Notes: generated by a model from the sequence alone, not told the origin. DNA of 47,983 bases from Candidatus Hermodarchaeum yapensis (GCA_016840405.1 JAEOSK010000020.1:1-47983); one strand, 5' to 3'; numbered from the stretch's first letter, positions 19,512 to 34,696 are shown. Program-made: numbers and translations.

Positions 19512-21116
19512 TTATAGTGAGAGAAGGCTTGTCCAATAGTCAGCTACTTGTTCTCTCGTTTCATAGGTTAAGAGTCCATAATTGGCTAGTTGTCGAGTAC
19601 CACGTTGAACGTGTTCAGTACTGAAAGGTCGAGTGATCCAATCCGCTCCGCGAGCTTTGTCATCCAGCGTCTGTCGGAACAGGGGGCTAGCTCTGATTTC
19701 AGTTCGAAGCAACTGAATCAATTGTTCTCCAAAAACGTCATCATAAAATTTCACGCTGTATTGGGTTTGGGACCCTTCATTGAGCCGGAGTGGAGGAATC
19801 ACACCATATCGTCCCTCACCTTGACCAATTTTTACAGCAAAAATCGGGATAACTAACCGCATAAGTGGCAGATATCCTTGCAATGTGTCAGCTGGGGCAC
19901 TGATGGTCTCAAATTGTTGCTGCTCGCCTTCAAGTTGGTCTCTTAGCTTCTTGGTGGCACCCTTCAATTCAGTGTGTAACTTTACTGTTGCTTCCCGAAC
20001 CATGCTTAGTTCAGCTAGTTGAGCATCAGTGGCTTCCTCTTCTCTGGGTTGCCGCGTGTACGTTATTGTCCCACTGGGGAACGGCGAAGGGCTAGGTGCT
20101 GCTGGCTGTAACAATGGCTCCTCCTGACCCCACTGAGACTGAAGCTTAGCTTCATGAAGTTGCTCGCTTTTTTGTTCAAGATTTTTAATGGCTTGTTGGA
20201 TAATCTCTTGAAATGCACTTGTCGTGTTCTGCAATTCAAGTAAACGTGTTTTTACATTTGCCAGATGCCATTCGGCTTCTATGGGTTTAGTTTGAATTTG
20301 ACTAACTAATCGGCGACACTGCTCGGACGAAACCCCGAGTGATTTTTCTAACTGGCTAATTAAACCAACAAGCTCGCCGGAAATCCGTTCCTTTGTTTGG
20401 TCCAACTCCAGAGAAGGCTCCTCCGCGAAAAATGATGGGTCCGGTTCACTTTCAATATGTGGTGCCTCCCATCGAAGAGTCGCCCCTGGAGACATCCGAT
20501 CCTGTCGGGCATCAAGGAGACGAATCTGTTCATCTACAAATTCATCAATCAAAATCTCTGCTTGACCTAACTGGGCAAGTTCGTCGTCAAGCCGTGCTCG
20601 TTCGTTCCGAAATAGAATTCCTACATCATGAATCTCTTTGGTCGAAAGACGTGAGCTTAAACAAACATCTTCTCGGGGTGGTGCTATAGCTGAATCAACG
20701 AGTAGTCGCAATGTTTCAATCATGGTTGGTAACATGGCATTACGAATGACAATCAATTCACTAGTCGGCTTCTCAAAGGTTTGAATAAATTCCCCTAGGA
20801 GCTTTGGAACCAGCTCCATTTTCTCGATACTACGAAGTTTTTCTCGCATCTGAACAAGCGAAGGAATTGAGGAGTGACGAACCGAAATGGTAGGTTCCCC
20901 GACTCCACTGATTATTAAACTCCGACCTGGTAAGGCATGAACCAAGAAGAAAGGCACGTATACTCGGGATAAATACACATAGGGAATGGGTTCTTGCACT
21001 TGTGTTCGTAAATACATTAGAGCAGAAACCAAATCAGCTTCTGGTGTGGACGAAAAGCCATTCTTCATGGCTTCAGGAGGACCCTGAATAAATGAAGCAA
21101 CCTTTGTAATGGCCAC
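19512..21116 (-). CDS. Hypothetical coiled-coil protein
   Basis: Long central heptad-rich region flanked by two similar beta motifs; GTG start after GGGGTGG. Confidence 0.75.
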   Translation of the reverse strand: MAITKVASFIQGPPEAMKNGFSSTPEADLVSALMYLRTQVQEPIPYVYLSRVYVPFFLVHALPGRSLIISGVGEPTISVRHSSIPSLVQMREKLRSIEKMELVPKLLGEFIQTFEKPTSELIVIRNAMLPTMIETLRLLVDSAIAPPREDVCLSSRLSTKEIHDVGILFRNERARLDDELAQLGQAEILIDEFVDEQIRLLDARQDRMSPGATLRWEAPHIESEPDPSFFAEEPSLELDQTKERISGELVGLISQLEKSLGVSSEQCRRLVSQIQTKPIEAEWHLANVKTRLLELQNTTSAFQEIIQQAIKNLEQKSEQLHEAKLQSQWGQEEPLLQPAAPSPSPFPSGTITYTRQPREEEATDAQLAELSMVREATVKLHTELKGATKKLRDQLEGEQQQFETISAPADTLQGYLPLMRLVIPIFAVKIGQGEGRYGVIPPLRLNEGSQTQYSVKFYDDVFGEQLIQLLRTEIRASPLFRQTLDDKARGADWITRPFSTEHVQRGTRQLANYGLLTYETREQVADYWTSLLSL

Positions 21117-21234
21117 TTTGCCACCCCAGGATAATAAGCCTACCCGCAAATTGAACAACACAGGGCGAAGTATAATCTTTTTGGCTAAGGTCTTCAACAA
21201 GGTTAGAAAAATAATTCTTCGGAATTGAATTCAA

Positions 21235-22605
21235 ATGACACAAAAGATACTGATAATTGGTTGTGGCACAGCCGGCGCGGCTGCAACGTTAATGGCGAGA
21301 AAAACTAATCGCAAAGCTGAAATCACAATACTCCAAAACGAATCACTACCCGAATACAGTCGATGCGGCTTACCCTATACCATCAATCGCAAAATACCCC
21401 AACTTGAAGATGTTATCATTCACCCCAACTCGTTTTATACTGGAAAACTCATCCGAGCCGACCTCCAGTTGAACACAGAAGCAACGAAAGTCGATATAAA
21501 GGCTAAGAATGTCACCACAAAAGATAACCAAGGGCAAACCAACACCCTTCCTTTCGACTCTCTGGTTTTTGCTACTGGTACACAACCTAGTATTCCACCA
21601 ATTGATGGACTTGATGCATCACATGTTCATCGACTTCATACATTCGAAGACGCTCGACAATTGCAAACCCTCGCAAAGAAAGGAACTGAAGTTGCAATAA
21701 TCGGCGCGGGGCTAGTCGGACTCGAAACTGCTGAAGCCTTTCACACTCTAGGCTTGAACGTCACAGTCATCGAGTTCCTCAACCAAGTTCTCCCCGCCAT
21801 GATCGACGAAGAGCTAGGGTTCATCGTCAAAGAACAAATGGAAGCCAAAGGGGTCACAGTCAAACTAGGAACTGCTGCAAAAGCAGTCGCAAAATCCCAT
21901 GTCTTGGTTGCGGATCGAGAAACCCAGAATGAAGAGAAAATTCCTGCTAGCTTAGTGGTTGTTGCTACAGGTGTGCGAGCGAATACAACATTAGCCAAAG
22001 AGAGTGGCATCAAAATTGGTGAACGTGGGGGCATTTTGGTGGACAATCGAATGGAAACCAACGTCAAAGACATCTATGCTGCAGGAGATTGTGCCGAACA
22101 CCTTGATTTGGTAACACAACAGTCAATCGTTTCCGGTCTTGGTTCCATAGCATTAAGGCAAGGGGAAGTAGCAGGAGTTAATGCAGCCGGAGGTAGTGCA
22201 GAACTACCTGGCGTTGTCTTGGCTAGAACAACTCATCTCTTCGGGTTAGAAATCGCCGGAGTTGGTCCCACACGTGTCGCCGCTGATCGTGCTAACCTCC
22301 CAATATTAGCTGGCAAATTCAAAGGGATGCCCACCGCCGAATACTATCCCAGTGACGAAGAAGTTACAGTCAAACTCTTAGCAAATAAAGAAACAGGACG
22401 ATTCCTTGGCGGACAAGTCGTTGGACCATGTGCCCATCAACGCGTGAACGTCCTCAGCGCTGCGCTCTCAACAAATATGACAATTCGACAAGTAGCAGAT
22501 CTCGAAACCTGTTATGCTCCCCCGGTTGCCCCAATTCGTGAACCAGTAACGCTCGCTGCCCAAATCCTAGCTCTACGTTTCGAAAAGATGAAACAACGAA
22601 AATAA
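21235..22605 (+). CDS. CoA-disulfide reductase / NADH oxidase family flavoprotein
   Basis: IIGCGTAG FAD motif, YSRCGLPY redox Cys, IIGAGLVGLE NAD(P)H motif, YAAGDC, ETCYAPP. Confidence 0.93.
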   Translation: MTQKILIIGCGTAGAAATLMARKTNRKAEITILQNESLPEYSRCGLPYTINRKIPQLEDVIIHPNSFYTGKLIRADLQLNTEATKVDIKAKNVTTKDNQGQTNTLPFDSLVFATGTQPSIPPIDGLDASHVHRLHTFEDARQLQTLAKKGTEVAIIGAGLVGLETAEAFHTLGLNVTVIEFLNQVLPAMIDEELGFIVKEQMEAKGVTVKLGTAAKAVAKSHVLVADRETQNEEKIPASLVVVATGVRANTTLAKESGIKIGERGGILVDNRMETNVKDIYAAGDCAEHLDLVTQQSIVSGLGSIALRQGEVAGVNAAGGSAELPGVVLARTTHLFGLEIAGVGPTRVAADRANLPILAGKFKGMPTAEYYPSDEEVTVKLLANKETGRFLGGQVVGPCAHQRVNVLSAALSTNMTIRQVADLETCYAPPVAPIREPVTLAAQILALRFEKMKQRK

Positions 22606-22623: not shown

Positions 22624-23073
22624 TCACTCACTTTGCTTTAACTTCTCTATGGCTAAAGCCACTCCTTGAATTATCGCTTCGGGCTTAGGTGGACAACCCG
22701 GAACATACACATCTACTGGGATTGCTGTATCCACACCACCTACAATTGTATGAGTCTCTTCGATGTTTGCCCCTTCTCCTTCAACAAAAATCCCTCCAGT
22801 ACACGCACAAGTTCCTAATGCAATAACCTTCTTTGGAGCAAGCATCTGATCAAAAATCCGTTTCACAAAGACCTTCGAGTGTTTGGACACACAACCATTC
22901 GTTATGAGAATATCTGCATGACGAGGATTTTGTTTCCACAGCACCCCTAGACGCTCAACATCGAATCGAGGTGTCAATACATCCAGAACCTCAATATCAC
23001 AGTTATTACAGCCACCCGCATGGAGGACAGCTATCCAAGGCGATTTTCCACGAGCCCAGCTCATAATACCCAT
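22624..23073 (-). CDS. Group 4 [NiFe]-hydrogenase small subunit (NuoB/EchC/MbhJ-like)
   Basis: GGCNNCDIE, PRHADIL, GTCACTGG, VPGCPP. Confidence 0.95.
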   Translation of the reverse strand: MGIMSWARGKSPWIAVLHAGGCNNCDIEVLDVLTPRFDVERLGVLWKQNPRHADILITNGCVSKHSKVFVKRIFDQMLAPKKVIALGTCACTGGIFVEGEGANIEETHTIVGGVDTAIPVDVYVPGCPPKPEAIIQGVALAIEKLKQSE

Positions 23074-23085
23074 CCATCTTCCACC

Positions 23086-23670
23086 TCAATATCGCAAGTC
23101 CTTCAGGTCCTTGGTGCTCATCGTTCCCTTCAACACGAAGACTCGTTGAGCAAATACTAGCAACACCAGAATGAGAATGCTCGAAAAGAACATCAACATT
23201 GCTTCAATCATAATATCGAACCCAGGAATTAGCAAATGAATCGAACAAATCAAAATCGATAAGCTAGCCACGCTCTTTCTCAAATCGGTCTTGGTCAACA
23301 GTCCAAAGACCCCAATCATGATTAATACCCATTCTATCCCACCAACACCCAGAACGTTAAACGAGATGACATATGTGATAATTCCAAACACAAAGAGTAA
23401 ACCAATAGAAAAAACAGGGTGCATGAGGGGCGGCTCTTCCGATTGTTTTGTATGAACCGTTGTAATGAAAATAGCGATTGGAACGAGAACGATTGCATAA
23501 ATGGCAAGGGGAATTATTTCCATGAAGGTCCCTTCAAGAAATGCTCCAATGATGAAAAAGGCACCGAGAATCCCGAGCAAAACAGTGACAATCCGAAAAT
23601 CGCGGATTTCAATGATGGCAACTGCTATGATAAGAATGATCAGTCCAATAATCAGATTCAGGTCTCCCAC
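23086..23670 (-). CDS. Membrane subunit of hydrogenase complex (HyfE/NuoJK-like)
   Basis: About 7 TM helices, ending LKDLRY; inside the operon; GTG start overlaps upstream stop. Confidence 0.75.
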   Translation of the reverse strand: MGDLNLIIGLIILIIAVAIIEIRDFRIVTVLLGILGAFFIIGAFLEGTFMEIIPLAIYAIVLVPIAIFITTVHTKQSEEPPLMHPVFSIGLLFVFGIITYVISFNVLGVGGIEWVLIMIGVFGLLTKTDLRKSVASLSILICSIHLLIPGFDIMIEAMLMFFSSILILVLLVFAQRVFVLKGTMSTKDLKDLRY

Positions 23671-24224
23671 CTCTGCGAATAATACTTCTGAGTATGCGTA
23701 TTCAACTGGTAACTTAACTTTCTCCGACAATCAACACAAAGATTCTCATACTTGGCAAGATCAGCTGCTACTTCATCCACAATTCGAGGATCGATGTTTT
23801 CCAAAATGCGTTCCTTCACTTTTGCTAAGTGTTCTTTTGTAGATACAACTGCATTGCATTCCTTACATCGAACTAGTTTGAACTCGATTGAGACATCTGC
23901 CTCCTTCTTATCATAAGCAGCCAGTTCAAACCTATCAGAAAGAGCAATACCATCTTCTGGGCAAATGTCCTCACAGCGACCACAGAATATACATCTGGGG
24001 TAATGAATACTTAGTCGGCGAGTTTTTCCTTTATCTTCAATGGAAATCGCTTTAGCGGAACAGCACACCGCACAGGCACCACAACCAATGCAGTTATCGT
24101 CTTTGAACTGGGGAAGTCCACGAATGCCAGGTGGAACATGACTGGGCGGACCATGAGGATATTTCGTAGTAGCTGGCTTGAAGAGAGCCTTCAATGCTTC
24201 CTTAATTGCTGTAATTTTAACCAT
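23658..24224 (-). CDS. NuoI/HycF-like 2[4Fe-4S] subunit with extra Cys pairs
   Basis: CIGCGACAVCC, CIFCGRCEDICP, CKEC, CVDC. Confidence 0.93.
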   Translation of the reverse strand: MVKITAIKEALKALFKPATTKYPHGPPSHVPPGIRGLPQFKDDNCIGCGACAVCCSAKAISIEDKGKTRRLSIHYPRCIFCGRCEDICPEDGIALSDRFELAAYDKKEADVSIEFKLVRCKECNAVVSTKEHLAKVKERILENIDPRIVDEVAADLAKYENLCVDCRRKLSYQLNTHTQKYYSQRWET

Positions 24225-24225
24225 T

Positions 24226-25206
24226 TCAGAATCCCACCACAATTCGGATCAAGGAAATGAGAGCGAAAGCCAAGCACACTGTCAGGAACCACTTGAACAC
24301 ATGGCTAATCCGATATCGAGCACTAGCTACGTGAATTATTGTCATTATGATGGTAATGCTGAGACACTTGAGGAGAAAGACTAGAATACTAATTGGAAAA
24401 ATCAGACCCGAGCCTCCCCCCAGGTAGAGGTCAACAAAGAGGGCGGTGAAGACATAAAATCGAAAGAGTCGAGCTAGCTCAAAGATTCCTAATAATGGTC
24501 CTCCATATTCGGTAAGTGGTCCAGCAAAGATTTCTTGCTCAGCCTCAGGAATATCGCCAAAGGGTCGCATCCACGATTTCGTCAGTAATGCCAGGAAAAG
24601 GGCTAAGGCTGCGAATGGATAGTGGAAAATAAACCAATTCGGAAGAACGGTCCACAAGAAATTACCCTCCTGAGCTAAGATGACATCGGTAATTGAGAGT
24701 GTGAAACCGTAACCACCGCGAGCCAGAGCAAGGGGCGGAATGAGAATCGCAATAGCAAGAGGAAGTTCCACACTGAGAATAATCGCAACTTCTCGACTCG
24801 CCCCGATCTTTCCCCAAGGTGAACCAGATGCCCATCCTGCAATGACAAAGGCGAGAGAGAACATCACGGAAAAGTAGAGAACCACAATAAGGTCCCACGA
24901 CAGGGGACCAGGCCAGTAAGGGATTCCCGGGGGAATCATAAAGCTGAGAATGAGGATCGCGCTTAACGCTACTAAGGGTGAAAGAATATACAGAAATTTA
25001 TTGGCTAAACACGGAATGAAACGTTCCTTACCAAATAATTTGATAATGTCTGCGACTGGTTGAACCAAAGGAGGTCCACGTCTAGCCTGTAATCGTGCGG
25101 ATAATTTTCGAAATACCCAAGCGCCTACCCAACTGAAAAAGAAGGCTAGTCCAATTGCTGCAAAATAAAGCCCTAAGATGAATAGAAAGTCCACAAGTGT
25201 TACCAT
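24226..25206 (-). CDS. NuoH/HycD-like membrane subunit
   Basis: RKLSARLQARRGPP...QPVADIIKLFGKE, GASRE, PEAEQE, GPLTEYGG; TAATG coupling with upstream gene. Confidence 0.95.
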   Translation of the reverse strand: MVTLVDFLFILGLYFAAIGLAFFFSWVGAWVFRKLSARLQARRGPPLVQPVADIIKLFGKERFIPCLANKFLYILSPLVALSAILILSFMIPPGIPYWPGPLSWDLIVVLYFSVMFSLAFVIAGWASGSPWGKIGASREVAIILSVELPLAIAILIPPLALARGGYGFTLSITDVILAQEGNFLWTVLPNWFIFHYPFAALALFLALLTKSWMRPFGDIPEAEQEIFAGPLTEYGGPLLGIFELARLFRFYVFTALFVDLYLGGGSGLIFPISILVFLLKCLSITIIMTIIHVASARYRISHVFKWFLTVCLAFALISLIRIVVGF

Positions 25207-27053
25207 TATATCCACCCCAGGAATAGCCACAAGAGGAGCAGTAGTGCAAATAAGACAAACCAAAGTACATACATGTTGGCTAGGCCCGTGTGAGTCTTTC
25301 TCACACTATTCAACAACGATCGGAAAGGATATGCAAACACTGTCGATGAAGGTCTCACCTCATCCACTTTCAAATACGGATCATGTAATGCACCCCCAGT
25401 CATAGGCATGGTCTTATCGTCGGCTTCAACGGGTTGAACTCCCCATCGGAATCGATAGAGTACATACCCAACTACTAGACCCATGAACAATAACGTGGCA
25501 AGTAGAAAGACATCCAAGGAGACCCAGATCAAAGGATTTACCGGTGGAGGTATTGCCGCTGGTAATAGTGGATATGTTGCAGGATAGATTAAGAATCCAA
25601 GTGCCAGTTGGGGAAAAATACCGAAGAGAATACAGCCTGCTGCAAGTATCAGTGATGGGGCTACCATGCTTTTTGGTGCTGAGTGCACATCAGCATACGT
25701 CTCAGGAGCATGACCTAAGAATACGGAACATAACATGCGGAGGAAAACTCCGAAAGTTAATGCAGAAGTGAAAATCGCTATGAGCGCAAAAGTAGGCTGT
25801 CCCGCTGCTATACACGCATTATAAACCATCCATTTGCTAACAAAACCGTTTAGTAAGGGAACACCAGCGATCGCTAAAGATCCAATTAGCATAACATATC
25901 CTGTACGGGGCATGGCGTGGAGCAATCCACCTAACTTGTTGATATCACGAGTACCAGTTTCATGTTCAATTGCTCCTGCACTAAAGAACAGGACTGATTT
26001 GAAAAGGCTATGATTTAGCAAGTGGAAAAGACCCGCTGCGATTCCGCCTGCAGCAACAACGAGCCAAACGGGATCGGCAAAAAGAGTGTTGGAAGTTATT
26101 GCTAGTCCGCCGATACCCAAACCAAGAATTACATAACCCATTTGACTGACACTATCAAAGGCGAGAAGACGTTTCAGATCGTTTTGAGCGAAGGCGATGA
26201 TTACGCAAATAAGCATGGTGAGTACGCCAAGGATGCAAATTATGAGCCAGAAATTTATGCTGATGAAAAGCGAATAGAACATAAGAAGGACAAGGAACGC
26301 CGGCATTCCAGCGACTTTGATCATCATTGCATGCAGTAAAGTGCTAATGGGTGCTGGTGCAGCTGTGGATGCATCAGGAAGCCAGGTATGAATGGGAAAG
26401 GAAGGAACCTTTACAAGAAAACCGAGGAATATCAAAAAAATCGCAAGCTTACCTATGAACCCAAGAAGCAATCCAGAAGCGATCAGGAAATCAATACTAA
26501 ACACTCCAATTCCTGCAAACCCACTGATCTGAGCTTCTTGGTAAATTAAACCAAGTCCGACCACCCCAAAAAAGGAAGCAAAGATTTGAATAACGAAATA
26601 CTTCAAGGCGCCTTCGTATGATGTAGCTTTCAAATAATGAGCAATTAGTGGAGCTGAACTGATAGTGGCAAGCTCAGCAAACAAGAAGACCCAAAGAAGG
26701 TTCCAACTATAAGCCATGCCCACTAAGCTACCTAAAGTCAGAAGCACGAAAAAGCTGTAGTAACCTCTTCGTTTCTCAATATATTTGATCGAATAAACCA
26801 CAACGAGGAAGCCAATGAAAGTGGCAATGAGGGCGATTAAGTTCGTATACCCGTTGACAGTAAAGCTGAAACCTAACAAACTTGGAAGGCTAATCAGTAG
26901 AGGCAAATAAAAGAAATTGAATATCACGACAAAGAGTGCAACTCCCGTGGCTAGAACTGCTACGATATCGTTAGCTCTCGTAATTTTCATCCCAAGGAGA
27001 GAAAGGGCTGCGGCTATGTAGAATATTACAACGATGATGGTTGGGTCTATCAT
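25206..27053 (-). CDS. NuoL/M/HyfB/MrpD-like ion-translocating subunit
   Basis: PIHTWLPDA, APAPISTLLH, DLKRLLAF, NHSLFKSVLF, GGL, PLLNGFVSKW. Confidence 0.95.
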   Translation of the reverse strand: MIDPTIIVVIFYIAAALSLLGMKITRANDIVAVLATGVALFVVIFNFFYLPLLISLPSLLGFSFTVNGYTNLIALIATFIGFLVVVYSIKYIEKRRGYYSFFVLLTLGSLVGMAYSWNLLWVFLFAELATISSAPLIAHYLKATSYEGALKYFVIQIFASFFGVVGLGLIYQEAQISGFAGIGVFSIDFLIASGLLLGFIGKLAIFLIFLGFLVKVPSFPIHTWLPDASTAAPAPISTLLHAMMIKVAGMPAFLVLLMFYSLFISINFWLIICILGVLTMLICVIIAFAQNDLKRLLAFDSVSQMGYVILGLGIGGLAITSNTLFADPVWLVVAAGGIAAGLFHLLNHSLFKSVLFFSAGAIEHETGTRDINKLGGLLHAMPRTGYVMLIGSLAIAGVPLLNGFVSKWMVYNACIAAGQPTFALIAIFTSALTFGVFLRMLCSVFLGHAPETYADVHSAPKSMVAPSLILAAGCILFGIFPQLALGFLIYPATYPLLPAAIPPPVNPLIWVSLDVFLLATLLFMGLVVGYVLYRFRWGVQPVEADDKTMPMTGGALHDPYLKVDEVRPSSTVFAYPFRSLLNSVRKTHTGLANMYVLWFVLFALLLLLWLFLGWI

Positions 27054-27055
27054 TG

Positions 27056-28282
27056 TTATTTCATCCGAAAGCGCTTGGATACTTCCCGCAACGTGTTAGT
27101 TGATTGTGTCCTTGTTGTCTGGTCGGTAATTGTGGTTAATCGATCTGTACAAGCCATGCACGGATCGACTGATGCTACAGTTATTGGGACATCCGCCAAA
27201 TCCTGTCCACGCAACATGAAGAGCAGTGCATAATCGTTCAAATAGGAAGGTGTGCGAACTCTCGCCCTTTCAGGGGTGTTGGTTCCGTTTGAAACCAGAT
27301 AATACAGGAGTTCACCTCGTGGTGCTTCAACGCGACCGACTGCCTCTCCCGGAGGGAATTCTGTTACTTCTGCTCTAATGGGTCCACTTGTAGTTTTGAG
27401 TTTATCTAAGCAATATTGACTAATCTTCACAGATTCTACCAATTCACCCAAGCGAACCAGCGCCATGGAAAAGATGTCTCCATCCTCGGCGGTAATTACA
27501 TCGAATGGGACTTCATCGTATGCGTCGTAAGGATCGTCCTTTCGAACATCGATTTTCATTCCAACGGATCGAGCAACCGGACCGACCACACAGATCTTTT
27601 TCGCAATCTCTTTATCCAATGTTCCGATACCCACGGTTCGCGCATGAATGCCTCCATCCTCTAACACTGCCTTAGTCGCAGTCACGGTGGCTTTGTAGAG
27701 AACTTTAAGTTTCTCTTCAATTTTTGGAATCATGTCTTTGTCAATGTCTCTGCGTACTCCACCAATGGTATTCATGGCATAATGTTGTCGATTCCCTGAA
27801 ATGGATTCCAGTACGTCCAGGACGTGTTCACGGTCCCGCCATATCAACATGAACAAAGTCTTGAATCCAATAAGTTCCATTCCAACACCTGCCCAGAGTA
27901 AGTGACTGTGGATTCGTTCCAGTTCCGCCATGAGGGTTCGGATATAACGTGCGCGATCAGGAAGCTCAATTTCACCAAGCATTTCAACCGTACGTGTATA
28001 CGCCGTAGTATGCGCAGCACTGCAAATGCCACACACCCGTTCGAAGAGGTAGAGATTTTGCCAATAGCTCCGATCTTCGGCGAGCTTCATGATTCCCCGA
28101 TAGTTGTATCCCAATTTCAGATCCACATCTAATACCTTTTCACCTTCCACTTTCAGTTTGAAGTATTCACCTTCAAGTAAGGCGGGATGGAAGGGTCCCA
28201 GAGGTACAACATATTCAGGGGCTACAACGTCGTCAATTTGCATTGGGATGGTTTTCTTCTTGGTTTCTTTCTTTTTTGTCAT
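27056..28282 (-). CDS. Group 4 [NiFe]-hydrogenase large subunit
   Basis: GPFHPALLE; L1 ERVCGICSAAH; L2 DPCMACTDR followed by a C-terminal extension; all four Ni-ligand Cys present. Confidence 0.95.
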   Translation of the reverse strand: MTKKKETKKKTIPMQIDDVVAPEYVVPLGPFHPALLEGEYFKLKVEGEKVLDVDLKLGYNYRGIMKLAEDRSYWQNLYLFERVCGICSAAHTTAYTRTVEMLGEIELPDRARYIRTLMAELERIHSHLLWAGVGMELIGFKTLFMLIWRDREHVLDVLESISGNRQHYAMNTIGGVRRDIDKDMIPKIEEKLKVLYKATVTATKAVLEDGGIHARTVGIGTLDKEIAKKICVVGPVARSVGMKIDVRKDDPYDAYDEVPFDVITAEDGDIFSMALVRLGELVESVKISQYCLDKLKTTSGPIRAEVTEFPPGEAVGRVEAPRGELLYYLVSNGTNTPERARVRTPSYLNDYALLFMLRGQDLADVPITVASVDPCMACTDRLTTITDQTTRTQSTNTLREVSKRFRMK

Positions 28283-28714
28283 CTAACCCACTTCCTCCAA
28301 AGGCCATGCATAGGGAAGAAACAGTTTCCGGGGATCGGGATGACCTTCAAACTTGATTCCCATAAGATCCATCAATTCGCGTTCAGCCCAATTGGCAGAC
28401 CAAGCAATATTGGTAATTGAATCAATGACTGGATTTTTTCTAGGCAGTCGGACTTTCATAGAGATATGAAGGCGTTGTTCTTGGTGTGAAAAATCAAAAT
28501 GATATACAATGTCAAATCCTTGGATGCCCTCATCATTGGCTGAGATGGCAACTAATTTTCCTTCTAATTTCTTTACTAAAAGTTGAGTGATTTCTTTGAT
28601 TCGGGTTGGCTGGGACCGAATAAAAAAGCGGTTATAGTGGTCGCAGTGCTCTTCCATGTAATCCTTTTTCAACAGCTTCTTCAATTGCCCACGAATTTCA
28701 TCCATTCGTCCCAT
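28283..28714 (-). CDS. NuoC/MbhK-like subunit
   Basis: IVYHF, SITNI, ANWAERELMDLMGIKFEGHPDPRKLFLP. Confidence 0.95.
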   Translation of the reverse strand: MGRMDEIRGQLKKLLKKDYMEEHCDHYNRFFIRSQPTRIKEITQLLVKKLEGKLVAISANDEGIQGFDIVYHFDFSHQEQRLHISMKVRLPRKNPVIDSITNIAWSANWAERELMDLMGIKFEGHPDPRKLFLPYAWPLEEVG

Positions 28715-29590
28715 TTAGTTACCTCCCAGACCAAGTTTCGCAATGAGCGAGTCGGTTTTAAGACGGTGCTTGTCTAAACCGATTTCTTGGGGTTTGAAGC
28801 CCAACCCCAATGCCATCAATTCCATCAAATTGAGCATTGGGAGATCGTAGCGAATACCTTCCCTTCTCAAAAGGAGTTGGGCTTTCTCTAATACATCAAA
28901 GCACCCCGGGCATGTTGTCACCATGCAATCTGCTTTCGCTTCTTGCATCTTATCTAATTTGAACTTAGATCGCTCTTCCATTGCCTCATCTAGGGAATAT
29001 AATGAGAGAGGAAATCCGCAACAAATCTTCTCAGCACCATAATCTACGACTTTGACTCCCAACGTATCGAGGATGTCATCGAAATATGAGACGAATTTCT
29101 CATTTGGGCTCTTGTAAAGCTTACAACCATATTGTACAGCAACTTTCACTTTTGATAGAGACTGCTTAAAGGCGTCTTTCAGTGATTTCAAGCCAATATC
29201 TTCGACAATGACCTCCAGGAAATGTTTGACTTTAATCTTGCCTTCGAATTCTTTGTTAAGAGGCGCTAGCCTGGAATTCACTTCGGTTAGAAGCTGTGTG
29301 TCATTTACCAGGTTTTCTCTGGCCTCGTAGAGGGTTTCCCAGCATCCATTGCATACGGTTAATACGTCCTTACCGATTGCTTCTGCGAGTGCAAGGTTGC
29401 GGGCTGAAACGTATAGCCATGCATCGTGGTTAGCCAATCGGACAATTTCGGGGACCGGACAGCAGGTTGCTCCTTCCATGTCAATAAGTTTCATTTTCAA
29501 ACGGGGGGCAATCCGGCGAAGTGAGGCTTCAGCAAAAGGTTGCATCGAAGGAATATAACAGCCCAAAAACAATGCATAGCTCTTCGTCAT
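28715..29590 (-). CDS. hdrB: Heterodisulfide reductase subunit B-like protein
   Basis: FLGC...CCPVP...CNGC and QYGC...CCG...CPGC (two CCG domains). Confidence 0.9.
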   Translation of the reverse strand: MTKSYALFLGCYIPSMQPFAEASLRRIAPRLKMKLIDMEGATCCPVPEIVRLANHDAWLYVSARNLALAEAIGKDVLTVCNGCWETLYEARENLVNDTQLLTEVNSRLAPLNKEFEGKIKVKHFLEVIVEDIGLKSLKDAFKQSLSKVKVAVQYGCKLYKSPNEKFVSYFDDILDTLGVKVVDYGAEKICCGFPLSLYSLDEAMEERSKFKLDKMQEAKADCMVTTCPGCFDVLEKAQLLLRREGIRYDLPMLNLMELMALGLGFKPQEIGLDKHRLKTDSLIAKLGLGGN

Positions 29591-29596
29591 TGATTA

Positions 29597-29881
29597 CTAG
29601 CCCTCATCTTCTGTCTTATCATCTCTATCGCTCCAGGTGGCCTTATCATAAAGATCAGTGTCTTTCACAAGCTTTTCAAGTTCCTCTCTTGCATCTTCAT
29701 GTTTATAGGCCGTAGGAGGCTTCCGATTAATCCCAAGTGTTTCTCGAACTTTTTCACGGGTGACTACAAGCTTTGGAACATGACCCACACGGATGATATT
29801 CTCGATTGGATCTTTGAAGGACTCAGGGAGTGTTTTCACCTTTTTCCTCCAAGGATACAAGGTGAGTTCGTCATCACTCAT
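29597..29881 (-). CDS. HdrC C-terminal-like small protein lacking Fe-S motifs
   Basis: ATG 29881 overlaps upstream stop; VGHVP...VRETLGINRKPPTAYKHEDAREELEKLVKDT resembles methanogen HdrC C-terminus; no Cys. Confidence 0.7.
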   Translation of the reverse strand: MSDDELTLYPWRKKVKTLPESFKDPIENIIRVGHVPKLVVTREKVRETLGINRKPPTAYKHEDAREELEKLVKDTDLYDKATWSDRDDKTEDEG

Positions 29882-30350
29882 CAGATTTCGCCTCCATTGT
29901 CTCTTTAGCCTCTTTTCTAGAGACAACCTGTAGAGCACCGGTGCTGCAGTATTTTGCACAACGCGGGTCCCCATCGCAAAAGTCACATTTGTAACTGATA
30001 CCCAAGGCTTTCTCAAAAATTGGGACAGAGATGGGGCAGGCGAAATTGCAGGATTTACAACCAATACATCGAAGTCGATCAATTGTCACGATTCCAGTGT
30101 CAGGGTCTCTTTTGATGGCTTTGGGTTCGGTGGGACATGCCGCTTCACAGATTGGATGTTCACAATGAGTGCAGTGGGCGTTGATGAAACTAGTGGGGTC
30201 GTTAGCGTCAGGATAAATTCGAATGTAAGCTTTGTCGAGGTCTGCTTCTTCAAAATGATAAAAGGAACACGAAATCATGCAATAGTAGCAGCCAGAACAC
30301 TTCTCTGGATTGTAAACCAGCACCTTCTGTTTCAAGAAGTCATCTGACAT
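29874..30350 (-). CDS. 4x[4Fe-4S] electron-transfer protein (HycB/CooF/DmsB-like)
   Basis: CSGCYYCMISC, CTHCEHPICEAACP, CIGCKSCNFACP, KCDFCDGDPRCAKYC. Confidence 0.93.
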   Translation of the reverse strand: MSDDFLKQKVLVYNPEKCSGCYYCMISCSFYHFEEADLDKAYIRIYPDANDPTSFINAHCTHCEHPICEAACPTEPKAIKRDPDTGIVTIDRLRCIGCKSCNFACPISVPIFEKALGISYKCDFCDGDPRCAKYCSTGALQVVSRKEAKETMEAKSDE

Positions 30351-30403: not shown

Positions 30404-30416
30404 GCCTATAAATGTA
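30404..30416 (-). promoter_or_regulatory. Putative TATA box for group 4 hydrogenase/Hdr operon
   Basis: Minus-strand TTTATAGG about 55-60 nt upstream of ATG 30350, in an 82-nt gap. Confidence 0.4.
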
Positions 30417-30432
30417 ATAATCCGACTAATTG

Positions 30433-31713
30433 CTAAGCAGTTCTTACAAAATGCACCGAACAAGAGATGCAGGGATCATAAGCACGAATGAGCATGTTCA
30501 AACGAAGCTCGGCCTCATCTTTGGATAATTCCTGGAGGACGGGAGAAAGGGATCGTACATCAGCTTCTATGTTGGAATAATTCATGGCTGTGGGTGTAAT
30601 AACATCAGCTGCGAGAACCCTTCCGCGGGCATTAAATCTGTATTCGTGGACTAGGACACCTCGTGGAGCTTCAACTGCGACTGCACCAGAGCCTGAACGA
30701 GTTTTATAATCAACGATATCGGCATGTAGGTTCTGAGTCAGGAGGTCATCAATAATTTCGATGCTCTGGTCAAGATAATGGAGATACTCGATTGCTTGGC
30801 CCAGATTCATCTGAAAGATGTCGTAACTGGGAAGTTTCAAACCCACCTTTTTTGTCATCCGTTTCGCGTTATCCGATAGCTGATCCTTCGCAACATTTAG
30901 TCGACCAAGTGAGCCGACGACAAAGGGTTTTCCTTCAACTTCACTAAATTTCGCGTGGGCATACGGTACATTACGCTCTTTGATGAGACTAGTATATTCA
31001 GATTCAGGGACTCGTAAACCTTTATCCGTGACTAAATCTCCTTCATAAAGAGGATAGTCTTTGGCATGTTTTACGGCTAAGTATTGGCTTCGTCGAACTA
31101 GTTTCGGCTCTGCAAACATTCCCATTAATTCGATTTGGGCTTCAGCATCAGGAATCGCCTCTTGAAGTCGCTTCCGCATCGATTGTAATTGTGAGGAGGT
31201 TGGGACGTGTGTGTACCCGCCGACAACGGCACATAACGCGTGGGTATGTCGTCCGCCAATGAGTTCCATAAGGTCGTTAGCCAGTTTCTTGAGCCGAAGT
31301 GCTCGTTGGACTTCTTCTTGGTATTTAGGTAGCATTTCAATAACGTTGCGTGCTCCGACATAGTCAGGAAGAGCAAGGAAGTTGATGTGCAGAGCGTGAC
31401 TCGCTAGATTATCGCCAATAAGTTGGAGTTTGCGTAACTGGTGAGTCTGTAGGTGAGGCTCGATTTGCATAGCGGCTTCAACTGCACGTAATGCTGCAAT
31501 GGCATGTGAATGACTGCAAATTCCACAAATTCGGGACATGATATGAGAGACTTCATTATGTCCATGATCTCGGAGGAAAGCTTCGAATAAACGGGTTCCT
31601 TCGGTAATTCGCATTTCGACTCGCGGTTCTTTTCCTTCTTTGAGTTCTACAAATAGGTCGCCATGTCCTTCGACACGAGCTATATGGTGGATGTCGAACT
31701 TCGCTAGAGCCAT
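30433..31713 (-). CDS. hydA: Group 3b [NiFe]-hydrogenase (sulfhydrogenase) alpha/large subunit
   Basis: ARVEGHG, SRICGICSHSH, AYDPCISCSVH. Confidence 0.95.
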   Translation of the reverse strand: MALAKFDIHHIARVEGHGDLFVELKEGKEPRVEMRITEGTRLFEAFLRDHGHNEVSHIMSRICGICSHSHAIAALRAVEAAMQIEPHLQTHQLRKLQLIGDNLASHALHINFLALPDYVGARNVIEMLPKYQEEVQRALRLKKLANDLMELIGGRHTHALCAVVGGYTHVPTSSQLQSMRKRLQEAIPDAEAQIELMGMFAEPKLVRRSQYLAVKHAKDYPLYEGDLVTDKGLRVPESEYTSLIKERNVPYAHAKFSEVEGKPFVVGSLGRLNVAKDQLSDNAKRMTKKVGLKLPSYDIFQMNLGQAIEYLHYLDQSIEIIDDLLTQNLHADIVDYKTRSGSGAVAVEAPRGVLVHEYRFNARGRVLAADVITPTAMNYSNIEADVRSLSPVLQELSKDEAELRLNMLIRAYDPCISCSVHFVRTA

Positions 31714-32495
31714 TCTATGTTTAACCTCCGTTTCAGTTGCTTCATGAACTCTTCTGCTGAGGCGTTAAACATTCGGAATTTCCGAACCACCAAGTCAAAA
31801 CTCGCGCCTTTCTGAGAGAACATGTCAATCTCAGATTCCACATTCGCCTGAGGCACCGGACCCCAACATCCTTCACATGGGAAACCTAAACTAGGACATA
31901 GGGCTCCACACCCAGCTCGCGTTATGGGCCCCAAGCACAGTTCTCCCTCTTTCATCAAGCAGACATTCTCTTTCATGCGACACTCAACACAAACCGCATA
32001 GTTCTTTTCCCGTGGCTCAGCACCTGTCAAAAGTGCTGTCAAAAATTCCACAAATTCCTGACCACTAATGGGACATCCCTGTAACTCATAATCAATTTTC
32101 ACATGGGATTTTAATGGCAAAATTTGGGGAAAGGTGTTAACATGAGAAGCGTCACCATACACGCTCTGTTTGAACTCCTCGATATTTCGTCCATTTCGAA
32201 TAGCATTTACTCCTCCTGTAGTGGCACAAGCTCCCATGGCGACTAGGATCTTAGAATTCTCTCGCAGCTCTTTAAGCCGAGTGAGCTCTGCTTCATTCGT
32301 AACGGAACCTTCAACGAAGCAAACATCATATGGACCTGGATGAGTCGCGGAACTTCCCATCCGAAATTGGACCAAATTGATATGTCCCAATATATCAAGT
32401 AGGTCATCTTCGAGGTTAAGGATTTCCAATTGACACCCAGCACAACAAGTCAACCCATAGAGGGCCACTACTGGTTTTGGTTTCCCTGTAGACAT
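31704..32495 (-). CDS. hydD: Group 3b hydrogenase delta/small subunit
   Basis: LTCCAGCQ, VEGSV, GACATTGG, QGCPI, CVEC, CLGPITRAGCGALCP. Confidence 0.93.
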   Translation of the reverse strand: MSTGKPKPVVALYGLTCCAGCQLEILNLEDDLLDILGHINLVQFRMGSSATHPGPYDVCFVEGSVTNEAELTRLKELRENSKILVAMGACATTGGVNAIRNGRNIEEFKQSVYGDASHVNTFPQILPLKSHVKIDYELQGCPISGQEFVEFLTALLTGAEPREKNYAVCVECRMKENVCLMKEGELCLGPITRAGCGALCPSLGFPCEGCWGPVPQANVESEIDMFSQKGASFDLVVRKFRMFNASAEEFMKQLKRRLNIEWL

Positions 32496-32519
32496 AACAG
32501 ACTCTCCTTAGGTCTTCGT

Positions 32520-33377
32520 TTATACCGCACCTCGCTGAGTCTTGGCTTCTTTATAGCTGAACACAGGACCATCTTGACAGACAAATTTGGATCCAACCAG
32601 ACAATGACTACAATGCCCGACACCGCATTTCATCCGACGCTCTAAGGATAAATAAACACGGTCATCAGGCAAGCCAATTTTTTCCAACTCCCGCATGACA
32701 AATTTATACATAATTGGAGGTCCGCAGACCAGTGCGTAGGTGTCTTTAGGTGAAATCGTGATTCGGTCAAAAAGGATCGTCACTACTCCGATATTTCCTG
32801 CCCAACAGTGTTCATCATCTCGGTCAACGGTTGCAACGTATTCGACATCACGACGATTATCCCAGATGTATAACTCGTCTTTGAAGAGGAGTTCTTCTGG
32901 ACATCGGGCACCGTACATGATTTGAAGTGTACCGTAATCGTCACGGTTTTCAAGAATGTCTAGAATTGCCGGTCGGAGAGGAACCAATCCAATTCCTCCT
33001 CCAATGATAACGACATTTTTTCCTTTCAGTTTCTCCATGGGCCATCCGTGCCCAAAGGGTCCACGCAATCCAACGATGCTATCCTGTGCGAGATTCTGAA
33101 GTGCATTGGTGAGGCTTCCGACCGAACGGATGCAGAAATCAAATGAACCCGTCTGATTCGGGGATGAGCAGATCCCAAATGGTGCTTCTCCATGGCCAAA
33201 TAATGATAAGAGCATGAATTGGCCGGGAATGAAGTTGAACTGCTTTTGTTGGTCTTTATTGACATATTCAACGGTGTAAAGGTTTGTATCTGGAGTCTGA
33301 GGAGTAACCCTTACAATGCGAGCCATGTTGTATTGGTAAGCGTTTTTTTCTGTACGAGTTGCAGTAGACTGAGTCAC
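32520..33377 (-). CDS. hydG: Group 3b hydrogenase gamma subunit (FAD/NAD(P)-binding, 2Fe-2S)
   Basis: PGQF, GEAPF, RGPFGHG, GGGIGLVP, VCGPPIM, LERRMKCGVGHCSHC. Confidence 0.93.
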   Translation of the reverse strand: MTQSTATRTEKNAYQYNMARIVRVTPQTPDTNLYTVEYVNKDQQKQFNFIPGQFMLLSLFGHGEAPFGICSSPNQTGSFDFCIRSVGSLTNALQNLAQDSIVGLRGPFGHGWPMEKLKGKNVVIIGGGIGLVPLRPAILDILENRDDYGTLQIMYGARCPEELLFKDELYIWDNRRDVEYVATVDRDDEHCWAGNIGVVTILFDRITISPKDTYALVCGPPIMYKFVMRELEKIGLPDDRVYLSLERRMKCGVGHCSHCLVGSKFVCQDGPVFSYKEAKTQRGAV

Positions 33378-33381
33378 CTAA

Positions 33382-34455
33382 CTAGTTCCCTCCTTTTTGG
33401 ATATCTGAAAGCAATTCAATCATATCGATGTCTGCAGGACAAGCCCGTGTGCACCGTCCGCAGCCTACACAGCCAATCTGATTGATTTGTTCTGGTTCTA
33501 TCCAGAATTTATGGTAAATGCGGAATCTCACTCGCGATGGGATAGTTGGTCGGAAATTGTGACCACCAGCAACGAGAGCAAAGTCAACGAGTTGACATGA
33601 ATCCCATTTTCGCACTCGTGCCCCTTCTTTGAGATTCAATTCTACCCGGTCACTAACATCAAAGCAGAAACATGTTGGACACACCATGGTACAGGCGCCG
33701 CATCCAAAGCATCGTCTCCCGAGGCGATTCCACATTTCAGCTTCGTAGCTTGCGTCAAATTGACTGGGAATTTCTTCAAAGCTATCAAGAGGATCTGGGA
33801 AGGTTTGATTCCGTTGGGTTAGGGTCTTTTTGACTAGTTTTGTCTGTTCTGTTGATGCAGGTGAAAACAGGATTTTACAAAATTCGACGACTTTCCTTCC
33901 AGTTTCAGTTAATACGTCCACATAGTAGGTGTTATCCAATTCAGTTAGCATGAGGTCTGCACTGTCAGTAGTGTGGAGGGTGCCTGCTGATTTACAGAAA
34001 CTGTCCTCACATGGCAATAAGCAATTCAACCCAATGATAATACCTTCTTCTCGGCGACGAGTACGATACGGATCTGGATATATCTGTGTCAAAATGAGAT
34101 CATGAAATTTAATTGCAGCAAGATCGCAGGAATGCACTCCAAAAACGAGGAATCGCTTTCCATTCCATAATGATTCAATATCGCTTTGGGCAAGGGTGTC
34201 ATGTATTGTGAGTGTGGGGCTTTGAGAAAAAGTCACCATATCCTCTGTGGGTGGAATGAAGAACTTCTTAGGCGGAAGAATAGTTGTGTCATAATCCAAG
34301 CGAAGCTGTGAACCATCTGTGATAGTATCAAACTTGAATTGGGATTGATTCGCAACCGGACCATACACCGTGAGAACTTGGGTGAGCTGCCGGACAAGTT
34401 TCGGAATATCTTTCTTCTTCAGTATGAGTGCAGCAACTTTCTTTTTCGGAGGCAC
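33382..34455 (-). CDS. hydB: Group 3b hydrogenase beta subunit (AsrA-like Fe-S)
   Basis: PPKKFF, GVHSCD, CFGCGACTMVCPTCFC, WDSC, CVGCGRCTRACP. Confidence 0.93.
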   Translation of the reverse strand: MPPKKKVAALILKKKDIPKLVRQLTQVLTVYGPVANQSQFKFDTITDGSQLRLDYDTTILPPKKFFIPPTEDMVTFSQSPTLTIHDTLAQSDIESLWNGKRFLVFGVHSCDLAAIKFHDLILTQIYPDPYRTRRREEGIIIGLNCLLPCEDSFCKSAGTLHTTDSADLMLTELDNTYYVDVLTETGRKVVEFCKILFSPASTEQTKLVKKTLTQRNQTFPDPLDSFEEIPSQFDASYEAEMWNRLGRRCFGCGACTMVCPTCFCFDVSDRVELNLKEGARVRKWDSCQLVDFALVAGGHNFRPTIPSRVRFRIYHKFWIEPEQINQIGCVGCGRCTRACPADIDMIELLSDIQKGGN

Positions 34456-34696
34456 ATAATCCACCCAGTCCACACATGTTAGTGTCTTCAGAGCTGTTCG
34501 CTAACAACCTTGTGTGCTTAAAATGTCTTAGGGTAATTCAACATAGGGGTTTTTTGCCTTTCCGAAATCACCAAAGGGCATTTATAAGCAAGGTCGTGAG
34601 CGTAAAAGACATAAAATGCCAGTTAGATTTTTTATTTTTAGTTAACCGAGTAATAACTGCTCTCCACATTGGAGGGCTTGGAAAGGGAACTAGGAA

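Follow-up and report, generated by a model that had tools for sequence, protein, structure and literature searches.

In the window analyzed here, a stretch of 47,983 nucleotides from Candidatus Hermodarchaeum yapensis (GCA_016840405.1 JAEOSK010000020.1:1-47983), ten co-oriented genes on the minus strand, running from 30350 to 22624, constitute an intact operon by Pfam and NCBIfam annotation. Their products probably form a single membrane complex built on the plan of formate hydrogenlyase (FHL) and membrane-bound hydrogenase (MBH), with a disulfide reductase in place of formate dehydrogenase, which would likely couple the reaction H2 + R-S-S-R' -> 2 thiols to outward ion translocation. A sequence-only reading of this DNA had described ten tightly coupled genes, and all ten were recovered in the order that it gave; at every junction, neighboring genes either overlap or are separated by at most 12 nt. 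The absence of hdrA and mvhD from the cluster was likewise borne out, with no FlpD/MvhD match in the window and all six of the genome located on other contigs. The operon comprises the following features:

30407-30412, minus strand: putative TATA box (TTTATA) within the invariant ACATTTATAGG, ~57 nt upstream of the g1 ATG
29874-30350, minus strand: g1, four-[4Fe-4S] ferredoxin of the HycB/HybA/DmsB type, 158 aa (Fer4_11, E 4e-15)
29597-29881, minus strand: g2, Cys-free C-terminal tail of HdrC, 94 aa (TIGR03290, E 2e-6)
28715-29590, minus strand: g3, HdrB with two CCG domains, 291 aa (TIGR03288, E 2.7e-68)
28283-28714, minus strand: g4, NuoC/HycE-N-like subunit, 143 aa (Complex1_30kDa, E 2.8e-26)
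27056-28282, minus strand: g5, group 4 [NiFe]-hydrogenase large subunit, 408 aa (Complex1_49kDa and NiFeSe_Hases)
25206-27053, minus strand: g6, single MrpA/D-, MbhH-like antiporter subunit, 615 aa (Proton_antipo_M)
24226-25206, minus strand: g7, NuoH/HycD/MbhM-like membrane subunit (NADHdh, E 7e-59)
23658-24224, minus strand: g8, NuoI/HycF-like two-[4Fe-4S] subunit, 188 aa (NF009053, E 3e-35)
23086-23670, minus strand: g9, membrane subunit of ~194 aa with a GTG start (no Pfam match; C-terminal half weakly MrpC/NuoK/MbhG-like)
22624-23073, minus strand: g10, NuoB/HycG-like small subunit, 149 aa (Oxidored_q6, E 2e-28)

The content of all ten gene calls stood, but the starts of g2, g7, g8 and g9 did not and were re-set after reading the junctions. 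The g2 gene starts at ATG 29881, overlapping the g1 stop as ATGAGTGA; the likely start of g7 is ATG 25206, in a TAATG overlap with g6, and g8 begins at ATG 24224, one base past the g7 stop. The GTG start of g9 (23670) is kept in all eight Asgard loci checked, and in four of these eight, stop codons lie upstream of it within the longer open reading frame (ORF). In the 82-nt spacer located 5' of g1, ACATTTATAGG is invariant in seven loci while the rest of the intergenic DNA has diverged, and TTTATA is therefore the putative archaeal TATA box of the operon itself.

The hydrogenase core conforms to the group 4 pattern. The claim that the large subunit has intact Ni ligands holds: g5 carries the L1 motif RVCGICSAAH at residue 82 and the L2 motif DPCMACTDR at residue 373, both invariant in 12 relatives, and extends 27 residues beyond L2 in the manner of extensions removed by a maturation protease. 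A protease of the HycI type is encoded elsewhere in the genome. The closest solved relatives of g5 are MbhL (6CFW_L, E 1e-82) and HycE (7Z0S_E). The antiporter-like subunit g6 aligns with MrpA (7QRU_A) and MbhH (6CFW_H), and its channel charges (Glu, Lys, His) are kept in FAELATISS, LVKVPSFPIHTWLPDA, MMIKVAG, FHLLNHSLFKS and GFVSKWM. The best NCBIfam models for g8 are the formate-hydrogenlyase and hydrogenase-4 Fe-S subunits, and its C-terminal extension bears an extra invariant CxxC...CxxC; in g10, Cys 22, 25, 89 and 127 fit the CxxC...C...CP pattern. A profile built from nine g9 relatives matches only MbsG and MbhG in the PDB (E 0.03), two of the nine family members have an Oxidored_q2 (NuoK-type) match, and E21, KTDxRK and H145 are invariant, all of which is suggestive of a C-terminal half resembling MrpC, NuoK and MbhG. 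With a NuoB-type small subunit, NuoC-, NuoI- and NuoH-like proteins and one antiporter-like subunit identified through Pfam and NCBIfam, the g5 complex is by its subunit set a group 4 membrane-bound [NiFe]-hydrogenase, for which ion translocation is predicted.

The first three genes supply the module related to heterodisulfide reductase (Hdr). The 16 Cys of g1, arranged as four CxxCxxC...C groups, are all invariant in ten relatives. The g3 protein aligns end to end with the solved Methanothermococcus HdrB (5ODC_B, E 1e-57), and its Cys 11, 43, 44, 80 and 83, together with 156, 190, 191, 227 and 230, align with all ten CCG-motif Cys of that structure. In contrast, g2 covers only positions 79-142 of the 144-position HdrC model TIGR03290, contains no Cys and aligns to residues 134-170 of the full-length HdrC encoded in the same genome. 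The usual partners of HdrB are thus reduced here to an HdrC without its two-[4Fe-4S] domain, with neither HdrA nor MvhD in the window. Like HdrABC-MvhAGD (5ODC), the operon encodes a full-length HdrB with both five-Cys CCG motifs and keeps the C-terminal part of HdrC as g2; unlike that system, which includes HdrA and MvhD, it has neither, its separate four-cluster protein g1 replaces the HdrC ferredoxin domain, and its hydrogenase belongs to membrane-bound group 4 rather than to group 3c.

To assess how the two parts might be joined, we modeled the g8-g1 pair from alignments of ten relatives per protein. The interface obtained an ipSAE of 0.86, against 0.00 for the best control, with three runs sharing at least 95% of contacts and partner pLDDT values of at least 88; the mark applied is reached by 58 of 80 solved complexes and by 2 of 110 mismatched pairs, counts that are only roughly valid for self-made alignments such as these. 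In the model, the C-terminal extension of g8 (residues 127-184) lies against the second and third cluster regions of g1, which supports docking of g1 on g8.

A profile scan with the large subunit, using one genome per species, yielded 80 loci, onto which we mapped the ten window proteins. The order from g1 to g10 is identical in all seven Asgard loci that reach upstream (L001, L003-L007 and L011; large subunit at least 74% identical), three further loci being excluded from this count as they begin inside the operon. The same ten genes in the same order are also found in a metagenome-assembled genome (MAG) of the Thermoproteota labeled Methanomethylicia (L010; large subunit 62% identical). The sequence-only reading depended on hdrB being conserved beside this hydrogenase, and since all informative Asgard relatives and one MAG of the Thermoproteota share this order, the linkage is indeed conserved. 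Other HdrB-linked arrangements occur in Asgard loci L013, L025 and L028, in Culexmicrobium (L014), in a Methanoregula MAG (L068) and in an unclassified archaeon (L055). The three Asgard loci represent a second, distinct HdrB-linked type among Asgard MAGs, ordered g1, HdrB, antiporter, NuoC, large subunit, NuoH, NuoI and NuoB, with large subunits 46-48% identical to g5; L025 and L028 form a clade of their own and L013 groups with a Bathyarchaeia protein. No HdrB was found in the bacterial loci of the scan. Five Omnitrophota/WOR-3 loci (L017, L030, L031, L042 and L051) have HydB/HydG-like (AsrA/AsrB-like, FAD/NAD-binding) genes directly 5' of their group 4 operon, an arrangement that suggests an NAD(P)H-linked membrane hydrogenase.

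On a maximum-likelihood tree of large subunits, the window protein, the Asgard loci, two metagenome proteins and L010 form a 100/100 clade. HdrB-less group 4 enzymes form a separate, well-supported clade, with the HdrB-linked large subunits outside it; this HdrB-less clade comprises the bacterial loci, a Hadesarchaea protein, an 'Asgardarchaeia' protein, a JGI protein annotated as MBH alpha and three further Methanomethylicia types, two of which have an HdrB only several kb away. The tree gives no resolved order among the HdrB-linked clades. In HdrB itself, g3 is 56% identical to the protein of Culexmicrobium L014, 48% to that of L010 and 34% to the two HdrA-associated copies of its own genome. 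The closest g5 homologs (85-96% identity) carry the names Hermodarchaeia, Hermodarchaeota, Promethearchaeota, Hodarchaeota and 'Odin' MAGs, in agreement with the earlier assignment of the window to an apparently Asgard genome.

Orthologs of g5 with at least 73% identity were detected in 11 of 400 Asgard species genomes, all other matches in these genomes being at most 53% identical. Ten of the 11 fall within the family of the window genome (10 of its 19 members, the window genome included) and one in another family. The operon lies between a CoA-disulfide-reductase (CoADR)/NADH-oxidase/NSR-family flavoprotein gene (21235-22605, plus strand, 456 aa), which converges on g10 at a distance of 18 nt, and a group 3b hydrogenase of the NAD(P)-linked type, hydB-hydG-hydD-hydA (30433-34473, minus strand), located directly upstream on the same strand. 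Next to the CoADR-like gene, every same-genus locus, whether it has the operon or lacks it, carries a conserved 562-aa ORF without a Pfam match (19512-21200, minus strand; 63-66% identity). In three genomes of the same genus (G102, G103 and G104) the site consists of FEN1, the 562-aa ORF, the CoADR-like gene and hydA-D-G-B, and the operon is absent: the CoADR-like gene and hydA are ~40 nt apart (L172:12581-15261, L173:2999-5676 and L174:11431-14108), versus the 7.8-kb cassette that separates them in the window. G103 harbors an ortholog on another contig. The cassette is thus gained or lost as a unit at one fixed site within one genus. Together with the sister sequences in the Thermoproteota, this suggests lateral transfer of the cassette, in either direction. 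No target-site repeats were seen by eye at the cassette borders in the short junctions, the flanks being too diverged to place breakpoints.

Several lines of evidence favor the assembly of the ten products into one complex, because domains and ligands are intact, junctions are tight, gene order is conserved, and the cassette is gained or lost whole. This reading is further favored by the retention of the g6 channel charges, the presence of a HycI-type protease and the pass of the g1-g8 model. It also gains from the expression of a cousin complex, Ehg, in a cultured methanogen (a Methanonezhaarchaeia strain; PMC12700198) and from the same interpretation having been reached for related clusters (PMC9723716; bioRxiv 10.1101/2024.07.04.601786). 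The placement of HdrB-linked large subunits outside the HdrB-less clade, and the greater closeness of g3 to the HdrB of L010 and of Ehe, the Culexarchaeia complex with which we equate the Culexmicrobium operon L014, than to HdrA-associated copies, point the same way. What the data show directly is gene content, intact metal ligands, conserved synteny, a promoter motif of the operon itself and a supported g1-g8 model; assembly of all ten proteins, catalysis, electron-flow direction, ion translocation and the substrate are inferred.

In the proposed mechanism, electrons would pass from the [NiFe] site of g5 to the proximal cluster of g10, the two clusters of g8, the four clusters of g1 and finally the non-cubane pair in HdrB (g3), which the HdrC tail g2 would hold in place, so that nine clusters in total would join the [NiFe] site to the disulfide site. 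The membrane arm would consist of g7 (NuoH-like), g9 (MrpC/NuoK-like) and g6, and the reaction of H2 with R-S-S-R' to give two thiols would be coupled to outward translocation of H+ or Na+. By their redox potentials, H2 oxidation with CoM-S-S-CoB-like or ordinary disulfides is downhill, and one antiporter-like subunit could conserve part of this energy. The disulfide is probably not CoM-S-S-CoB in the Hermodarchaeum host. The genome (2.7 Mb, 77 contigs, 86% complete, 4.4% contamination) yielded no match for mcrA (MCR_alpha) or comA, which makes the sequence-only wording, a thiol/disulfide pair of unknown identity, an apt one.

Several considerations weigh against this interpretation. The g3 protein scores 230.3 bits on TIGR03288, under the NCBIfam equivalog cut-off of 345.15, and is HdrB-like rather than a certified equivalog of that family. 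No source of oxidized disulfide is evident, with mcrA and comA not found at the given completeness. Known group 4 enzymes have proton reduction at their [NiFe] site as the coupling step, and H2 oxidation is not known to drive ion export in the group 4 fold. Finally, the g1-g8 pass may reflect memory of the HycB-HycF pair in 7Z0S; because that pair has already been solved, the pass denotes likeness to the FHL architecture and is no independent proof.

If the prediction holds, a single complex would combine H2 oxidation, disulfide reduction and ion pumping without quinone, methanophenazine or flavin-based bifurcation. This bears on how non-methanogenic archaea with Hdr but no Mcr use their Hdr genes, and on the hydrogen-based metabolism that has been suggested for those Asgard archaea related to eukaryotes.

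A rather unlikely alternative is that the operon encodes a ferredoxin-dependent, H2-evolving enzyme of the MBH/FHL type or a reversible redox valve. In this view g1 would serve as a ferredoxin dock and HdrB as a side branch, through which reduced ferredoxin or H2 could also reduce a disulfide, or through which thiols could drive H2 formation when H2 is very low, at the expense of the ion gradient. Both of the closest solved relatives, MBH and FHL, evolve H2, g1 is a four-cluster ferredoxin of generic HycB/CooF type, and the Mvh-HdrA systems of the genome could consume or produce the same thiols; section 7 of Appler et al. also calls the Asgard complexes MBH-like. HdrB, however, is present in every relative of the clade and is for that reason no optional add-on, and the operon has no ferredoxin-generating module. 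Redox potentials also make thiol-driven H2 evolution strongly endergonic, which counts against this alternative.

It appears quite unlikely that the complex acts on a sulfur species or on a persulfide or disulfide linked to CoA, as an H2-dependent sulfur or CoA-disulfide reductase that works with the neighboring NADPH-linked group 3b 'sulfhydrogenase' and CoADR/NSR-like flavoprotein, a trio that would then resemble the SH-I, MBH/MBS and NSR of the Thermococcales. The best NCBIfam models for the group 3b subunits are those of the Pyrococcus sulfhydrogenase, and six Asgard loci have hydBGDA immediately upstream of the operon, while in L010 it is divergently adjacent. The CoADR-like protein has TIGR03385 as its best model (310 bits, full length) and an active-site Cys44 in YSRCGLPY; its gene is convergent downstream of the operon in five Asgard loci, and another HdrB-linked Methanomethylicia operon is followed by a co-directional CoADR-like gene (L160:5952-7304, 34% identical). 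Yet hydBGDA and the CoADR-like gene are adjacent in the three same-genus genomes without the cassette, so that their pairing is independent of it; the adjacency may simply mark the site of insertion or loss, and the hint of CoA or sulfur chemistry is correspondingly weak. The CoADR-like protein also falls under its equivalog cut-off, and nothing ties HdrB to CoA or sulfur. A related notion, to which we give little credence, is that the cassette is a laterally mobile 'plug-in' that adds H2-cycling, ion-pumping respiration to an existing NADPH/H2/thiol island formed by the group 3b hydrogenase and the CoADR/NSR-like flavoprotein, in which case the acceptor may be a thiol or sulfur carrier unrelated to methanogenesis (polysulfide, or the disulfide or persulfide of CoA). 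Were it true, some Hermodarchaeia would gain an H2-dependent chemiosmotic metabolism that is apparently lacking in the cassette-free G102 and G104.

We consider it very unlikely that the CCG protein acts on a non-disulfide substrate, in the manner of SdhE/TfrB (fumarate), LutA/LldE (lactate) or GlcF, or on a protein-bound disulfide of the lipoyl or DsrC type. After TIGR03288, the NCBIfam matches of g3 are the fumarate-reductase subunit SdhE (124 bits) and then LdhH, TfrB and GlcF, SdhA and GcvH are found beside Ehe (PMC9723716), and the only GcvH of the genome lies 2 kb from another Hdr cluster. Against this, the methanogen HdrB is by far the best match of g3, over its full length (230 bits; 5ODC_B, E 1e-57), and there is no gene for SdhA, lactate dehydrogenase or GcvH near the operon. 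We considered GcvH as a substrate of the window HdrB and rejected it for want of specific support: the sole GcvH gene is found close to a separate Hdr cluster on a different contig, and since GcvT and GcvP are encoded elsewhere in the genome it has its ordinary role.

Finally, it is highly improbable that g1, g2 and g3 form a soluble bifurcating complex with an HdrA from elsewhere in the genome rather than serving the hydrogenase: although HdrA-like genes number at least six, spread over five contigs, against only two canonical HdrBC pairs, the two-cluster domain of HdrC, the part that contacts HdrA in the HdrABC structure, is missing from g2, the three genes keep their order with the hydrogenase across phyla, the g1-g8 interface is supported by the model, and the cassette comes and goes as a unit. 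Nothing indicates that the window HdrB partners a distant HdrA, as the sequence-only reading had considered; two HdrA adjoin their own full-length HdrC and HdrB, to which g3 is only 34% identical, and the lost HdrC ferredoxin domain argues against such a role.

The complex favored here belongs to a class already in print for the Hermodarchaeia lineage and for other archaea, where it is a prediction. Kohtz 2022 (PMC9723716) described Ehd, Ehe, Drh, Ehg and 'Ehd-like' complexes as HdrB-interacting membrane hydrogenases, crediting the name Ehd to Borrel et al. 2019, located Ehd-like clusters in Bathyarchaeia, Methanomethylicia and Culexarchaeia JZ-Bin-30, and proposed for TACK archaea that H2 oxidation is coupled to disulfide reduction and ion translocation; the authors noted that such hydrogenases occur also in non-methanogens, for which the disulfide was left unidentified. 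Section 7 of Appler et al. 2024 (bioRxiv 10.1101/2024.07.04.601786) describes MBH-like Asgard complexes of groups 4l/4q 'with a peripheral heterodisulfide reductase domain', Hermodarchaeia included, predicted from genomes and AF2-Multimer. As compared by description, these share with the window operon a deep-branching Asgard host and an MBH-like subunit set with an Hdr module, but that section makes no mention of the tail-only HdrC, the gene order or the variable presence of the cassette. The 2021 Hermodarchaeota paper lists a group 4 hydrogenase and Hdr genes and, in the passages searched, draws no link between them. In Kohtz 2022 and section 7 of Appler et al., we found no mention of non-orthology to the Ehd-type operon of mcrA-bearing Methanomethylicia, of presence or absence of the cassette at one fixed site, or of the conserved TATA box of the operon. 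The window therefore adds no new kind of complex; it offers a complete and, putatively, self-promoted cassette and natural presence/absence variants in one genus, which could be of use in studying expression or in looking for the thiol by genome comparison.

The comparison with Ehd made in the sequence-only reading stands, with one qualification. The window operon shares with Ehd and Ehd-like clusters a group 4 hydrogenase co-located with HdrB, HdrC and one ion-antiporter subunit, but its large subunit is not an Ehd-type ortholog. In five mcrA-bearing Methanomethylicia genomes, the HdrB-linked operon consists of antiporter, g1, HdrB, fused NuoC-D, NuoH, NuoI and NuoB, has no g9 match, and encodes a large subunit that is 43-45% identical to g5 and falls in a separate 100/100 clade beside Ehe; we take this operon to be the published Ehd, equated without reference sequences. 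McrA is found in 36 of 62 species genomes of the class of L010; none of these 36 has a large subunit more than 54% identical to g5, and the L010 genome itself has no McrA match. Mcr and CoM biosynthesis characterize the host of Ehd in the strict sense; neither MCR_alpha nor ComA was detected in the 86%-complete window genome. Given the 43-45% identity, the different order, the separate clade and a host without an Mcr match, the window operon is Ehd-like in design and, on present sequences, no ortholog of that of the mcrA-bearing Methanomethylicia.

Ehe shares with the window a non-methanogen host and the g1, HdrC-tail and HdrB genes at the head of the operon, but differs in order (g1-g2-g3-g10-g4/5-g7) and has a large subunit 53% identical to g5; none of its flanking SdhA, CdhA, HdrA2B2C2 and GcvH genes (PMC9723716) is found at the window operon. 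Escherichia coli FHL (7Z0S) and Pyrococcus furiosus MBH (6CFW) share with it a core of HycE/MbhL, HycG/MbhJ, HycF/MbhN, HycD/MbhM and one antiporter-like subunit. The HycB- and HycF-like proteins of FHL and the equivalents of HycG, HycE, HycD and HycC are all encoded in the window operon, whereas the position of FdhF is taken by HdrB and the HdrC tail, and no molybdopterin/FdhF gene lies in or beside the operon. MBH has in common with it an MrpC/NuoK-like subunit, whereas the remaining small Mrp-like subunits of MBH have no counterpart in the operon.

The HdrA genes of the genome all lie outside the window contig, four of the HdrA-like genes being fused to MvhD, and are distributed as follows:

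C58: HdrA-MvhD fusion with a full-length two-cluster HdrC and HdrB
C77 (L108:556-7246): hdrC-hdrB, a three-subunit 2-oxoacid:ferredoxin oxidoreductase, hdrA and mvhD
C42: group 3c Mvh with two HdrA-like genes
C73: HdrA-MvhD fusion beside a group 3 hydrogenase
C39: a further HdrA-MvhD fusion

The pairing of Hdr with a 2-oxoacid:ferredoxin oxidoreductase on C77 is unusual, and it is this cluster that has the sole GcvH of the genome 2 kb away (L108:9284-9811). A group 4-like gene on C76 was rejected as part of the system, being an orphan NuoD-like gene without hydrogenase neighbors and unrelated to the window operon; it encodes a 401-aa protein resembling NuoD and [NiFe] large subunits (L112:8963-10955) and lies beside a 228-aa ORF covering only the C-terminal part of catalase and a LonB protease. 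On C73 (L110:4728-11213), the HdrA-MvhD fusion has an N-terminal DUF7347 and is followed by the group 3 small and large subunits, with a neighboring gene for a 564-aa protein that carries a methylene-H4MPT dehydrogenase N-terminal domain.

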